Shown: positions 1 through 64,000, numbered from the stretch's first letter. The stretch: 64,000 bases of DNA from Escherichia coli (GCA_902500125.1 GCA_902500125.1_4132.1), one strand, 5' to 3'. The notes: generated by a model not told the origin, from the letters alone. Numbers and translations: made by a program.

Positions 1-168
1 GGTTATAAGAAAGAAGTACAGAAGATTGATGTATTTGTTCGTGCATTAAGTCCAACACATGCACTATTTAAATTGTTTGATGAAGTAACTAAGTACAACA
101 CACCAAAAACACAACGCTATATTGAAACAGTACATAGTGTAATACTCACTGAATATGATGGAGAATGA
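1..168 (+). CDS. hypothetical protein, 3' end (partial)
   Basis: Open frame from window start to TGA at 166-168; next gene's RBS follows immediately. Confidence 0.5.
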   Translation, partial: GYKKEVQKIDVFVRALSPTHALFKLFDEVTKYNTPKTQRYIETVHSVILTEYDGE

Positions 169-171
169 CAA

Positions 172-390
172 ATGAATTTATATCTAGTTGAAGGGTCAGT
201 ACAAGTATCCAAGCAAGACGGAGAAGGGTATCGTTTTTCACATGTAGAATATTTTAAGTACGTAGTAAAGGCCGATGGTCAGTACGACGCAGAAATTCAG
301 GTTGAAGAATCATTCCGTAAGAAGAATGATATTGGTAAATTTGAATACCAAGACTTACAATTCACTGTATGGCCTAGCATTAATGACTAA
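172..390 (+). CDS. hypothetical protein (72 aa)
   Basis: ORF track; ATG preceded by GGAGAATGAC purine-rich stretch. Confidence 0.5.
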   Translation: MNLYLVEGSVQVSKQDGEGYRFSHVEYFKYVVKADGQYDAEIQVEESFRKKNDIGKFEYQDLQFTVWPSIND

Positions 391-595
391 GATGTGGTGG
401 TGTCATGGTGTCTACAATGTCTATGAATATGGTAGATTCAAAATGAGCAGCACCTATGCCAGACGTGTTAATGCGAAAAACCAAGTTGATGCTGCTTGTG
501 AGATTGTAGAGTGGTATGCAGAGTTCAATGCAATTGATTTTATGTACGAAATAGTTACAATAAATGTTGTACAAATTGACACGTCTTTGATATAA
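383..595 (+). CDS. hypothetical protein (~70 aa)
   Basis: Internal Met of ORF 275..595 just upstream of the preceding stop (overlapping); no clear SD. Confidence 0.35.
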   Translation: MTKMWWCHGVYNVYEYGRFKMSSTYARRVNAKNQVDAACEIVEWYAEFNAIDFMYEIVTINVVQIDTSLI

Positions 596-629
596 TAACT
601 GTATCAAAACAACCGCAACTGAGGATACT

Positions 630-1292
630 ATGTTAGTTAATCTTAATTTCATCACTTCTCCTGATTGGGCATTGCGTGGTGTTTCTTTGAACTTTAAAGA
701 AACTAATTTCGACTACATTGGTGATTGTACTTTAGTTAATGCTACATTTGATCCTCATCATCCTTTTTGGGCTGAAATTCATGATCCTAATGTAAACAAT
801 AGTACATCTGTTATGACTATTGTACAGACGAAACATACAGGTATCCTCGCAGGTTACAGACCAGGACATGCGATTGAACACTTCACTGATTATGATGTAG
901 TAGATGAGTATCCAATGATCCATGAAGATGGAAGTTTATACACGTCAGAAGACTTCCGTGCTATCTTTAATAGTACTGATGACATTCTACCAAGTGGTCG
1001 TCCACGCCCTGAGTCTTATCTTATGCACTCGTCTTATGGTGTAGCAGATACGCTTGAACAGATTTTGACGAAGTACAAGAACCTTATTGAAGGTCCTGAA
1101 GAAATTGTCATGTGCTATCATCCAGTACTGAAGTCTGACCAACCAGAGAGTGGTGGGTGGCGTTGGCATAAGAATGGTGAGTACATCGGTACTAAGCGTA
1201 GTAAAGAACGCTTTGAGTACTTGTATGATGAGCCAGATGTTGAGGTTGTTTTATGTTATAATTTTCTTAAGGTGAAAAAGAAATGTATCTAG
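630..1292 (+). CDS. hypothetical protein (220 aa)
   Basis: ORF track; RBS-like GAGGATACTATG. Confidence 0.6.
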   Translation: MLVNLNFITSPDWALRGVSLNFKETNFDYIGDCTLVNATFDPHHPFWAEIHDPNVNNSTSVMTIVQTKHTGILAGYRPGHAIEHFTDYDVVDEYPMIHEDGSLYTSEDFRAIFNSTDDILPSGRPRPESYLMHSSYGVADTLEQILTKYKNLIEGPEEIVMCYHPVLKSDQPESGGWRWHKNGEYIGTKRSKERFEYLYDEPDVEVVLCYNFLKVKKKCI

Positions 1293-1525
1293 TATTGAGT
1301 TTTGTAGTTGCATTATTGTTTATGTTCTACCCTACACTAGTAGCAGTAGCCACTAAACGAAAGCTGGTGGATATCACTACTGTATTCTTGCTAAACGTGG
1401 CACTCGTTCTAGTGTCTATTATCATTCCCGTGAGCTTTACGGTTATTGATATTATTTCGGTATTACTCTTCGTGTTAAGTTATCTTATGCTTATTGAAGA
1501 AACAAATGTTGACAAACGTTCGTAG
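1283..1525 (+). CDS. small membrane protein (80 aa, hydrophobic)
   Basis: ORF track; two or three hydrophobic helices. Confidence 0.5.
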   Translation: MYLVLSFVVALLFMFYPTLVAVATKRKLVDITTVFLLNVALVLVSIIIPVSFTVIDIISVLLFVLSYLMLIEETNVDKRS

Positions 1526-1582
1526 TACTGTATAATGGTTCCTGTAGTCTGAAACTTAACACTTAAACTTGAGGTAAAAAAT

Positions 1583-1909
1583 ATGCTATCAGTACTAATT
1601 TCAATTCCGTCTTTAATTCTGATTTGGCTTCTGGTTTACGAATGCTTTATTACTGATGATAATGATAAAAAAGAGTTCTCTGAGTTGTTTATGCTTGATT
1701 CACCGATTGTGCGTATTTTCTATACAGTCGTTGTGGTTTCAGTAATTGTATGGGTTTTGAGTTTTATCTTCCCACTCGGTGCAGTAGTTAAAACTTTGGA
1801 TTTAGTTGAGAACTTTGTTGCAATTATGTGGCTAATCAAAGCACTATTTGCAGGAAATGTTAAAATTTGGATTGATATTATCAAATTCAAGTTCACGAAT
1901 AAGATGTAA
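1583..1909 (+). CDS. membrane protein (108 aa)
   Basis: ORF track; RBS TGAGGTAAAAAATATG; hydrophobic segments. Confidence 0.6.
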   Translation: MLSVLISIPSLILIWLLVYECFITDDNDKKEFSELFMLDSPIVRIFYTVVVVSVIVWVLSFIFPLGAVVKTLDLVENFVAIMWLIKALFAGNVKIWIDIIKFKFTNKM

Positions 1910-1987
1910 CAGTGAAAATATCTCTATAGTATTAAATACTTCTGTACATATATATAGTACAGAAGTATTTCTCGTTAGAGGTTTGTT

Positions 1988-62085: not shown

Positions 62086-62386
62086 AATGATGTATACCCC
62101 AGATATGATTTATGTTGAATTAGAAGATGATGACGATGGGTGGAATTTGATTTATTCAAGAAGTTCAGGTTGGTACATGGCACATTTAAATGATTCGATA
62201 GTTACAGATTATTTTGTAGATTTCAATACATTATCCGATGAAGAATTGTTCCAACAGCAATTAGTGATTGACACGGGTGGTTATGATGTCTTATTATTAA
62301 AAAAGATACAAAAAGCTGTTATTGATTTTAAGCCCATGATATGGCAAAGGAAATATTATGACCTCGAAGTACCATACCAGCAATGA
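62075..62386 (+). CDS. array-3 paralog (~100 aa)
   Basis: LSDEELFQQQLVIDTGGYDVLLLKKIQKAVIDF; start 62075 or 62087. Confidence 0.5.
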   Translation: MKYKMMYTPDMIYVELEDDDDGWNLIYSRSSGWYMAHLNDSIVTDYFVDFNTLSDEELFQQQLVIDTGGYDVLLLKKIQKAVIDFKPMIWQRKYYDLEVPYQQ

Positions 62387-62924
62387 AATTCAGTACACCT
62401 ACGCTAATGCAATCCTTATGGGACAAAAGTTAGCTTGTATTGTTGCAGCCTTATATAATGCCCAGAAATATCACAAGCGTCATTTCCACAAATGTATTGG
62501 TATTATTCCATCGAAGTACAATACATATATTGCGTGCACGAGTCATTTTGATAAACGATTCAATACACCTGATACCCCAAATGCCAGTAGTGTTATTGGT
62601 CTTTTGGATTTCGCACCTGGTGCTGTTATTGGAAAGAATGATTTAGAGTACACATGGTATAATAAAAATGCCCCGTTAGTAATGGGAAAATATGATACAG
62701 AAACGAATAAAACAATAGAGTACAATACATATAAATCAGAGGAAGAATTTTTCCAAGGTTCATTGCTTGTACCAGTGCGTTTGTTGTTTTATAATGTCCT
62801 TATTAGTACAGTACACAATAGTCCATTACACAAGAATCACAAAATTAATTTCAATTTTTGTGCTTATGCGATTGATGGTGTGTATGAGTGTTTAATGGAG
62901 GTATTGAGTTATGAAGCTGAATAA
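62358..62924 (+). CDS. array-3 paralog (188 aa)
   Basis: RBS AAGGAAATATTATG; KSEEEFFQGSLLVPVRLLFYNVLISTVHNSPLHKNHKINF. Confidence 0.55.
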   Translation: MTSKYHTSNEIQYTYANAILMGQKLACIVAALYNAQKYHKRHFHKCIGIIPSKYNTYIACTSHFDKRFNTPDTPNASSVIGLLDFAPGAVIGKNDLEYTWYNKNAPLVMGKYDTETNKTIEYNTYKSEEEFFQGSLLVPVRLLFYNVLISTVHNSPLHKNHKINFNFCAYAIDGVYECLMEVLSYEAE

Positions 62925-63252
62925 TACATTTGATATTAATAAGTTAAGAGAATGGTTTTATAGTATTGAAATTGAAGCCATCCCGTATCATAGATATGAA
63001 CAATATAATTTAACCAGTATTGATATCCGTGAGTTGTACGCGTATTATCAAAGTGCATTAGAGATGCATAAGTTATTTTTGAGTACAGATTTTGTTATAA
63101 ATTACAATTTTGAGGAATTTAATAATTATAATTTAGTACAGAAATATGTAGTAGCAAAGTACATGTACCTTCAAGGAATTACAAGTAATTTGGAATTCAA
63201 TACAGTCCTGGCTTTAGTTGAGGTAATTTTATGCAGTACATGTATGATTTAG
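62911..63252 (+). CDS. hypothetical protein (113 aa)
   Basis: RBS GGAGGTATTGAGTTATG. Confidence 0.55.
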   Translation: MKLNNTFDINKLREWFYSIEIEAIPYHRYEQYNLTSIDIRELYAYYQSALEMHKLFLSTDFVINYNFEEFNNYNLVQKYVVAKYMYLQGITSNLEFNTVLALVEVILCSTCMI

Positions 63253-63737
63253 AGTTTAGTTTAGATGCTGCCTTTAAATTTGTTCACAAGATAGAAACAA
63301 TATACAGTACATTATGTGCAATACAATCAGTATCATCTGAGTTTGATGTTGGTGAAAAATATCAGGTATGGAATAATACATTTCTAAACAAAGAACGTTG
63401 CTCTACGGGGTTTAATATTTTAACATTTAATCCCAGCAATTGTTACCCAGAGAAGCATGAACGTTATCCGAATGACGACATGTGGTTTGATTACACAAAA
63501 GATGGTGATATGTCATCCCTTGTAGTTCCTGATGATTTTAATGCCGAAGATTTAACGAAAGAGTGGTGGTTTCAACAGAATTTAGTACACGATGATATTG
63601 ATTTATTTTTTTATGTAGTATTTAAAATGCTTTACCACAACAATATATTAAAAGATAGTGTGTTTTTTTCATGTCTATATATTGATGATTTGTACAATGA
63701 AATCCAAATCAACATGCCCAGAACGCCTGTATCGTAA
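63231..63737 (+). CDS. array-3 paralog (168 aa)
   Basis: RBS GAGGTAATTTTATG; LTKEWWFQQNLVHDDIDLFFYVVFKML. Confidence 0.55.
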   Translation: MQYMYDLEFSLDAAFKFVHKIETIYSTLCAIQSVSSEFDVGEKYQVWNNTFLNKERCSTGFNILTFNPSNCYPEKHERYPNDDMWFDYTKDGDMSSLVVPDDFNAEDLTKEWWFQQNLVHDDIDLFFYVVFKMLYHNNILKDSVFFSCLYIDDLYNEIQINMPRTPVS

Positions 63738-63752
63738 GATATGGGCTTTTTT
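63716..63752 (+). terminator. weak terminator-like hairpin (GCCCA...TGGGC + T6)
   Basis: ATGGGCTTTTTTCG at the array end; large loop. Confidence 0.35.
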
Positions 63753-63762
63753 CGTTTTGGTA

Positions 63763-63791
63763 TTGACAAAGAAGTGCAAAGCTGTTATCAT
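63763..63791 (+). promoter_or_regulatory. promoter TTGACA-N17-TATCAT
   Basis: TTGACAAAGAAGTGCAAAGCTGTTATCATG. Confidence 0.5.
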
Positions 63792-63819
63792 GTGTAATCA
63801 TTTTAAAGGAGAACATATA

Positions 63820-64000
63820 GTGAGTTTCATAATCCCAAGTACATACGAAGATGCATCAAGTGCAGTGTATAAGGTTCATTATATTTTTAATTTAATTATT
63901 AGTGCATCAAAAAATAAAATGTATGCACCTCTTGTGAAATATGATAAAAATGAGGAAATTTTTGTTAGCACAGAACAAACGATTTTTCCATATTTCAAAG
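63820..64000 (+). CDS. hypothetical protein, 5' end (partial; GTG start)
   Basis: Strong SD AAAGGAGAACATATAGTG; open to the window end. Confidence 0.4.
   Translation, partial: MSFIIPSTYEDASSAVYKVHYIFNLIISASKNKMYAPLVKYDKNEEIFVSTEQTIFPYFK

Follow-up and report, generated by a model that had tools for sequence, protein, structure and literature searches.

The hexameric palindrome AGTACT is iterated to an extreme degree in a 64,000-bp stretch of jumbo-phage DNA deposited under Escherichia coli (GCA_902500125.1; hereafter, the window). The trait is common to the genera Asteriusvirus, Alcyoneusvirus and Mimasvirus, and comparisons between relatives indicate that the sites are under purifying selection. 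Our preferred reading, which we hold tentatively, is that AGTACT may serve as a recognition word for duplex DNA (ttCAGTACTGaa), dyad-symmetric and read by a clade-specific binding or modifying protein, the case in which the reader also modifies the DNA being included. Megablast placed the window in the Asteriusvirus group of 121Q/PBECO4-type jumbo coliphages (121Q, PBECO4, SP27, G17, Sharanji and others), with 93–97% identity in conserved parts and a mosaic small-gene region where coverage is only 55–70%. For word statistics, the 121Q genome (348,532 bp) was taken whole, and RaK2, GAP32, CBB and E. coli K-12 were represented by 50-kb samples.

The 278 copies of AGTACT in the window compare with 20.8 ± 4.8 in dinucleotide-preserving shuffles (n = 100; maximum 31, none of the 100 reaching the observed count). 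Markov models predicted 21 (order 1), 47 (order 2), 103 (order 3) and 227 copies (maximal order 4, z = 8.7), and AGTACT, which is also the commonest hexamer of the window, ranked first under every one of them. A composition artefact is thus ruled out by both the shuffles and the Markov models. Within a simple set of 158 non-overlapping open reading frames (ORFs; 84% coding), 188–189 copies were found (3.5/kb, against 90 copies or 8.75/kb outside), with all three reading frames in use (75/47/67). The 189 in-ORF copies far exceed the 56.0 ± 6.1 obtained by shuffling synonymous codons within each gene and the 24.8 ± 5.1 obtained by shuffling codon order. Synonymous shuffling gave the same picture in 121Q, both for late/structural ORFs (95 copies against 29 ± 5) and for the ORFs at 200–348 kb (293 against 80 ± 7), so that codon usage and protein sequence are ruled out as the cause in early and late genes alike. 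The first-pass annotation, which had been made from the sequence of the window, had claimed an over-representation that recurs in coding regions, and had named Markov z-scores with a correction for codon usage as the check. The enrichment remains significant under these statistics and is stronger than had been stated.

The pressure for AGTACT has reached protein sequences, inflating Ser-Thr and Val-Leu dipeptides. Ser-Thr occurs 144 times in window ORFs where 82 are expected, with 75 of the 144 written AGTACT, and Val-Leu occurs 171 times where 111 are expected, with 90 written GTA-CTN. AGT makes up 32% of the Ser codons of the window, a share inflated by in-frame AGTACT. A tRNA-Ser with anticodon ACT, which would read AGT, is annotated in 121Q (25,464–25,555 of the 121Q piece L002) and may compensate for the effect of AGTACT on codon usage. 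In the window itself, a tRNA scan and an Rfam search found no tRNA and no Rfam family.

The unit under pressure is the hexamer with a preferred C before it and a preferred G after it. C stands at position −1 in 43–47% of sites and G at position +6 in 47–49%, and the two flanks are statistically independent of each other. The commonest 12-mer around the sites is TTCAGTACTGAA. The octamer CAGTACTG occurs 65 times in the window where independent flanks predict 64.1, and the 10-mer TCAGTACTGA occurs 16 times where they predict 11.4; since both counts fit independent flank preferences, the 10-mer, which had initially been put forward as an over-represented palindrome in its own right, does not stand as a separate element. 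Copies of a repeat family or mobile element are likewise ruled out, as the sites share a core of only 6–8 bp in flanks that are almost free of information. Density along the window is uneven, at ~3/kb between 1 and 28 kb and 7–9/kb between 28 and 53 kb, and two stretches, 52,960–57,868 and 60,308 to the end, are free of AGTACT. Outside these two special domains, gaps reach at most 2.1 kb, and the sites are spaced slightly more evenly than a Poisson process would give (coefficient of variation 0.79–0.92), with the longest gaps below expectation.

The same enrichment extends through the whole of the 121Q genome and across genera. In 121Q, AGTACT occurs 903 times where ~100 copies are expected, is the commonest hexamer and gives the commonest octamer, CAGTACTG; every 10-kb bin holds 11–65 copies where ~3 are expected. 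The word is 9–13-fold more frequent than expected in every context. The 50-kb samples contain 114 copies against 11 expected (RaK2), 114 against 14 (GAP32) and 112 against 16 (CBB), and the early region of RaK2 carries the word at 7–9/kb. A more distant relative, Pseudomonas phage PA5oct, is depleted (3 copies where 14 are expected) and normal for GCGC. The unrelated phi92-like coliphage ALITA has none where 9.9 are expected, and a further 16 palindromes are missing from it. The K-12 sample holds 3 copies, so that the word is 40–100 times denser in the phage than in the host sample.

Palindrome avoidance is a textbook trait of phages, and the first-pass annotation had remarked that the enrichment runs against it. 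The contrast is borne out within a single genome: in 121Q, 24 palindromic hexamers are at zero copies (3–47 expected for each) and GCGC is absent where 178 copies are expected. GCGC is also at zero in the RaK2, GAP32 and CBB samples, whereas the E. coli sample contains 342 copies (~6.8/kb). Restriction-site avoidance depletes a word, and AGTACT is instead enriched. Extreme restriction avoidance could account for the loss of GCGC and of the other palindromes, as could a phage nuclease acting on host DNA only. Neither the AGTACT enrichment, nor the GCGC loss, nor the ACT-free operon described below is reported in the accessible papers on RaK2, CBB, phAPEC6 and Sharanji or was found in full-text searches.

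Sites are conserved beyond their surroundings. Across a 47-kb alignment of the window with 121Q (7% divergence), 197 of 220 AGTACT sites (89.5%) are intact against 73.5% of all hexamers, and per-base divergence is 2.95% within the sites against 6.95%. The effect holds in non-coding DNA (91% against 72%) and in coding DNA (89% against 74%, and in each frame), and is strongest in the divergent terminal-repeat region (87% against 61%). Gain and loss are balanced, with 23 sites present only in the window and 31 only in 121Q. Between 121Q and RaK2 (50 orthologs, 69% nucleotide identity), 24 of 58 sites (41%) lie at the same aligned position against 16% of all hexamers, and the remainder have turned over. 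Eight of the nine classes of one-mismatch neighbors are enriched 1.16–2.15 fold, the ninth, AGGACT/AGTCCT, standing at 0.59. As the neighbors are mildly enriched rather than depleted, they look like decay products of selected sites and not like precursors undergoing conversion; VSP-like biased repair is rejected on the same ground, the precursor words for such repair not being depleted. Selection of this kind argues for the dedicated function that had been proposed for the word.

The word is densest in a region of small early genes homologous to the direct terminal repeat of a related phage. Long direct terminal repeats are present in the deposited records of several relatives, and the boundaries in the window were placed by homology to the annotated 21,525-bp repeat (1–21,525) of vB_Ec-M-J. 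On this basis the window would run from the right-hand end of the unique region through the complete ~21-kb repeat and on for a further 11 kb. In phage CBB, a 22.5-kb repeat is backed by read depth and pulsed-field gel electrophoresis (PMC5259590). All 142 copies of AGTACT in the first 26 kb of vB_Ec-M-J lie within the repeat and none in the next 4.5 kb. Early genes of the terminal repeat carry 4.5/kb within ORFs and 12/kb between them, and late genes ~2/kb.

The non-coding zone across the inferred left genome end comprises the first 1.8 kb within that end and ~0.3 kb before it. Its 22 copies are close to the ~24 counted originally, where fewer than one is expected. Two 28-nt repeats ending in TCAGTACTGAT stand just before the inferred terminus at 32,398. 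The zone also contains iteron-like tandem repeats (repeat regions 33,206–33,329 and 33,949–34,084), with a 24-nt unit, TCTGGACGGCTAAACGGCTAGATT, in 4 copies, and a 53-nt unit in 2.6 copies with two AGTACT each; these tandem repeats may be a packaging, injection-stop or replication element. A second word, Chi (GCTGGTGG), is also abundant. The window contains 12 forward and 4 reverse copies, 16 in all, where ~0.3 are expected for each orientation and ~0.6 in total. Ten forward copies lie in the terminal repeat, with Chi at 32,976–32,995 and 10 more sites at 39,553–51,722. An inverted pair, ~580 bp inward of the inferred left end of the genome, forms the hairpin CCACCAGC-TTGT-GCTGGTGG. In 121Q, Chi is present in 18 and 11 copies where 1.5 and 1.0 are expected.

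The genes of the small-gene region are each served by a separate sigma-70 promoter, and these promoters are built to a highly regular design. A first AGTACT overlaps or adjoins the −35 element (agtacTTGCAA or agtactATTGACA), and a second stands directly 5′ of G-TATAAT. The two are 20–24 bp apart in ~15 promoters, and their positions are fixed in ~15–20 early promoters. A third design carries a further copy ~23 bp upstream of the −35-proximal one. The promoters are followed by an ACAT start region and then by a GGGG..CCCC hairpin. The TG of agtactGTATAAT, taken in the first-pass annotation for an extended −10 element, directly abuts TATAAT, one base nearer than in the canonical TGnTATAAT, and this leaves that assignment unsupported. 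These cassettes resemble T4-type PeSL and strong T5-type early promoters in providing each small gene of a mosaic region with a near-identical A-tract, −35, −10, ACAT and GGGG..CCCC hairpin. They differ from the PeSL and ALITA cassettes in the AGTACT insertions at −39 to −34 and −19 to −14, which are specific to the clade. The homologous early promoter of ALITA reads AAAAAGTATTGACA and contains no AGTACT. Because this homolog lacks the word, the promoter framework works without it, and a generic need of strong coliphage early promoters is ruled out by the AGTACT-free promoter and genome of ALITA. A late promoter element is ruled out as well, since late genes use a T4-like (T)ATAAATA without AGTACT; T4-like ATAAATA late promoters are reported for CBB (PMC5259590).

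Intrinsic terminators provide another context (Table 1). An array of at least seven paralogous RCC1-repeat (beta-propeller) genes occupies 18,562–27,816 of the window on the minus strand, immediately ahead of the block of small genes that comes before the terminal repeat, and each paralog has its own promoter and a terminator with an AGTACT stem. Some other terminators are likewise built on two copies of the word. The use of the word in promoters and in the terminators of this array had been described before and is borne out, as is the judgement that promoter use cannot account for its density: even by generous pattern criteria, promoter-like context covers only 72 of the 278 sites (~26%).

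Table 1. Coordinates of AGTACT-bearing and AGTACT-free features in the 64,000-bp window.
Feature	Position	Strand	Description
AGTACT palindrome, extended consensus tt-C-AGTACT-G-aa	1–64,000		278 copies in ORFs of both orientations, promoters, terminator stems and non-coding DNA
Hairpin TCCagtactATTAagtactGGA	17,389–17,410	+	between two plus-strand genes; made of two AGTACT copies
Further terminator stems of two AGTACT copies	19,767–19,839; 24,588–24,642; 25,379–25,453		
Intrinsic terminator of the RCC1-repeat array	26,623–26,642	−	stem formed by two AGTACT copies, GCCagtactTGagtactGGC, then a T run
Non-coding zone across the inferred left genome end	32,115–34,168		22 AGTACT, 8 of them as TCAGTACTGA; tandem and 53-bp repeats
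Region homologous to the direct terminal repeat	32,398–53,090	+	small early genes with their own sigma-70 promoters; 142 AGTACT, ~6.9/kb
Example early promoter	37,287–37,319	+	AGTACT at 37,287–37,292, overlapping the first T of −35 TTGCAA
Second AGTACT of the example promoter, followed by G	37,307–37,312	+	directly 5′ of −10 TATAAT (37,314–37,319); sites 20 bp apart
Domain 1, ~20 overlapping small genes	53,100–57,860	+	0 AGTACT, 10 TGTACT, 1 AGTAC
Junction block between the polar domains	57,861–60,310	+	~2.4 kb, full AGTACT at ~6.9/kb
Domain 2, start of the ACT-free operon	60,305–64,000	+	plus strand with 0 ACT and normal AGT; 23 of 24 AGTAC are AGTACA

To the right of the repeat boundary, the word gives way to one-base variants of opposite polarity in two adjacent domains, a pattern seen in all four genomes compared (the window, 121Q, vB_Ec-M-J and A4, in this order below), although AGTACT itself is symmetric. 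Domain 1, 4–4.7 kb long, contains 10/6/8/9 copies of TGTACT, 1/0/1/2 of AGTAC and no AGTACT in any genome. In domain 2, AGTACA occurs 23/41/49/46 times and GTACT never, with AGTAC at full density. Domain 1 does not lack AGT, and the two domains are therefore not mirror images. A replication origin at the polarity junction was considered and set aside, as there is no GC-skew switch there.

Domain 2 lacks ACT altogether on its plus (sense) strand. The ACT-free zone extends over 7,511 bp in 121Q (161,803–169,314), 8,458 bp in vB_Ec-M-J and 6,981 bp in A4, of which the window shows the corresponding first 3.7 kb. From its frequency in the genome, ~144 ACT would be expected in the 121Q zone, which amounts to 144 times the mean spacing; the longest gaps of other trinucleotides and in control genomes are 10–25 times the mean spacing. 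The operon comprises ~19 genes, in which ACT is missing from every frame and Thr is never encoded by ACT, while AGT, ACA, ACC and ACG are normal. Proteins in the zone are only 44–54% identical between lineages, and the absence of ACT must therefore be actively maintained. As AGTAC is kept where ACT is barred, the pressure for AGTACT and the ban on ACT are separable, the closest permitted variant being retained. No such zone was found in the 50 kb around the RaK2 early region.

An ACU-free transcript suggests, as the best explanation, immunity to an endoribonuclease that cuts at ACU; the alternative is a strand-specific reader of single-stranded DNA. Transcripts of this kind have a precedent: mRNAs without ACA escape MazF, and Kid cuts UUACU. 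The operon resembles ACA-less, MazF-type transcripts in lacking a short word in all frames and is unlike them in its extent, ~144 sites having been removed from ~19 genes and kept out despite the low protein identity. An RNase specific for ACU is not known to us from E. coli or this phage, and when 150 ORFs of the window and a further 300 small ORFs of 121Q were scanned against Pfam, no domain of the MazF/PemK type, which could belong to a cognate RNase, turned up. Two Pfam matches among the small ORFs of the window are possible leads to an RNA- or gyrase-directed early function: a ParE-like toxin domain in one ORF (E = 5e-11) and, in another, a weak C-terminal match of RNase T2 type (E = 0.002).

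We propose that weak but pervasive selection holds AGTACT dense, at ~900 copies per genome, across the RaK2-like enterobacterial jumbo phages, and that its reader would be a two-fold symmetric, clade-specific protein, either a dimeric binder or possibly a modifying enzyme. Such a protein could tell phage from host DNA by the word, and could coat, organize, protect or modify phage DNA. The same preference for C and G on two independent flanks is what two identical half-sites predict. AGTACT recurs as a component of functionally unrelated elements, namely the spacers and −35 flanks of promoters, the stems of terminators and the terminal non-coding zone, and this points to selection on the word itself. 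In the early promoters, the paired copies lie two helical turns apart, one abutting the −35 element and the other filling the spacer up to −14; judging by this position, the pair would form an operator, and the same protein would use it to switch the early genes of the terminal repeat. The gradient from ~7/kb in the repeat to ~2/kb in other genes would suit a protein whose earliest and strongest action falls on the DNA that is first to enter and first to be expressed.

Several observations weigh against a duplex-reading protein. The polar one-base variants of the two AGTACT-free domains are not predicted by a reader indifferent to orientation, and they hint at strand-specific reading of single-stranded DNA or RNA. 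Beyond the C/G position, flank preferences in plus-strand ORFs are imperfectly mirror-symmetric, although a random-position control is equally asymmetric with respect to the coding strand. The operator role is deduced from where the promoter sites lie, and the comparison with the host draws on a single 50-kb E. coli sample. The reader itself did not surface: the Pfam scans of window and 121Q ORFs found no domain of the HTH, RHH, TetR or AbrB type, and neither a transcription-factor-like nor a MazF-like domain came out of PHROGs searches with 10 of the larger ORFs of the window.

Five alternatives to a dedicated duplex reader were weighed and are ranked in the order modification target, single-strand word, RNA signal, mutational drive and host-factor decoy. 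A phage methyltransferase, or another enzyme that modifies bases, could act on AGTACT, the density of the word setting an epigenetic or protective mark for self-marking, for blocking restriction of the ScaI/Eco255I type or for timing early promoters. We consider this unlikely as an explanation of its own; it overlaps with our preferred reading, in that the symmetric reader would be the enzyme. Some protection of the sites is to be expected where ~900 ScaI-type sites are kept while 24 palindromic hexamers are lost and ALITA drops AGTACT. Two recognizable methyltransferases are encoded in 121Q, one a C5-cytosine enzyme and the other an adenine enzyme of the Dam family, alongside two sigma factors, one of the sigma-70 family and one a gp55-like late factor, and the analogous HIP1 discussed below overlaps methyltransferase targets. 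Protection, however, accounts for tolerance and not for a 9–13-fold enrichment or for conservation. Neither methyltransferase could be assigned to AGTACT. For the C5 enzyme such an assignment is unsupported, because its closest relatives outside the genus (~51% identity) are in phi92-like phages, of which the sampled ALITA avoids the word, and because methylation in RaK2 is reported from bisulfite data at CpG (PMC3622015), a dinucleotide that AGTACT does not contain. Relatives encode two or three methyltransferases (PMC3622015, PMC5259590). A side result of these searches concerns the Campylobacter-labeled phages A150, C3, A110a and A145 (~146.4 kb), which share the early-promoter cassette (85%), the C5 methyltransferase (51%) and their genome size with phi92/rV5-type coliphages; these records look like coliphage-type genomes.

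A second alternative is a strand-specific word (5′-AGTAC-3′ or an AGT/ACT core) whose reader, such as a gp61-type primase, a helicase or a translocase, works on single-stranded DNA, the palindrome being the cheapest way of placing one copy on each strand. In its favor, the two conserved domains keep only one half each (TGTACT or AGTACA), with the full palindrome between them, and strand-specific trinucleotide recognition is a hallmark of primases (GTC for T7, GTT/GCT for T4 and CTG for DnaG). We nonetheless regard this explanation as distinctly improbable: the missing skew flip gives no support to an origin at the junction, the left domain keeps AGT so that the domains are not mirror images, primases need no site density above chance, a pyrimidine-initiated primer on an AGT core would be unusual, and no rationale is known for purging one strand over 7.5 kb. 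An equally doubtful proposal is that AGUACU times expression at the RNA level, as a signal for processing, decay or binding, AGUACU-rich early transcripts being shut off while word-free ones persist, much as RegB of T4 cuts GGAG in early mRNAs. It fits the way in which density tracks the likely temporal class of genes, and the existence of two operons without AGTACT, one of them without any ACU and best matched by immunity to an RNA-level agent. Yet an RNA signal needs no perfect palindrome with equal C and G preferences, many copies, in the −35 flank and spacer, precede the predicted start of transcription, and late genes also keep the word under selection. AGUAC, moreover, persists at full density inside the ACU-free operon, which separates the two constraints, and a MazF/PemK-type RNase domain is missing from the Pfam-scanned ORFs. 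That the word has no function, and is continually made by sequence-biased mutation, repair or gene conversion (for example VSP-like repair tied to a methyltransferase), is very unlikely. Its presence in every context whatever the local function, and the movement of over half of the sites between 121Q and RaK2, are what such a process would give, but the one-mismatch precursors are enriched 1.2–2.2 fold instead of depleted, existing sites change at a rate 2.4 times lower than the sequence around them, in non-coding DNA too, and a genome-wide mutational drive would not leave conserved 4–8-kb domains without the word. Least credible of all is a decoy or binding site for a host protein, notably the nucleoid-occlusion factor SlmA. 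The core of the SlmA-binding site (GTGAGTACTCAC) is identical to AGTACT, and the trait is limited to phages of Enterobacterales; the site, however, needs G and T at positions 1–2 and a purine at position 3 (PMC3020112). These flanks are missing from all 903 sites of 121Q as full sites and are present in 20 of 1,806 half-sites, GTG-AGTACT occurring once; the window has no full site either. With no AGTACT site bearing the required flanks, a SlmA decoy is largely ruled out, and ALITA, which shares the host, removes the word.

Among known systems, the closest analog is HIP1 (GCGATCGC), the highly iterated palindrome of cyanobacterial genomes, which overlaps methyltransferase targets. AGTACT has the descriptive properties of a highly iterated palindrome, being top-ranked, present in all contexts and frames and conserved between genomes. 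Both words are perfect palindromes that rank first in their genomes, are conserved above background and recur at intervals of a few hundred bases, within genes in all frames as well as outside them, and for both a link to co-resident methyltransferases is suspected. AGTACT differs in being AT-rich and 6 bp long, in belonging to a virulent phage clade rather than a cellular lineage, in coexisting with the loss of most other palindromes, in occupying promoters and terminators, and in having polar half-variant domains. With Chi, KOPS and the DUS/USS uptake sequences, it shares many weakly selected copies within genes and a benefit that would scale with density; as is proposed for AGTACT, those words distinguish self from foreign DNA. 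The stems of terminators are built from uptake sequences too, as they are from AGTACT. Those words are, however, asymmetric and are read directionally by RecBCD, FtsK and the uptake apparatus, whereas AGTACT is symmetric. The SlmA-binding (SBS) and Noc-binding (NBS) sites are, like AGTACT, scattered palindromes absent from chosen domains and serve a dimeric binder, as is proposed for AGTACT, and the SBS core is AGTACT itself. The SBS requires its flanks and occurs at tens of sites per chromosome, in contrast to ~900 per 350 kb without such flanks for AGTACT.

A broader hypothesis, which we regard as possible but on balance doubtful, is that the RaK2-like jumbo phages write a sequence code. AGTACT would mark self; the forbidden GCGC and 24 further palindromes would leave the host as the only substrate of a nuclease; strand-specific editing of AGTACT would split the early left end of Asteriusvirus genomes into TGTACT, full-palindrome and AGTACA domains; and the ACU-free operon alone would survive an undescribed ACU-specific endoribonuclease encoded by phage or host.

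A clade comprising the largest coliphages favors one ScaI-type site while purging nearly all other palindromes. The pattern implies a molecular reader in phages that have neither a phage nucleus nor hypermodified DNA and that need some other way of distinguishing self from host, and there is a good chance that it will lead to a DNA-reading, possibly RNA-cutting, system. The ACT-free operon points to an undescribed RNA-level (or strand-specific DNA-level) weapon together with transcript immunity, on a scale unreported for phages in the literature searched. The word is also relevant to the engineering and recoding of these phages as therapeutic candidates. If the hypothesis of a sequence code is true, it would represent a new form of self/non-self discrimination and temporal control, exerted through word content and not through base modification.

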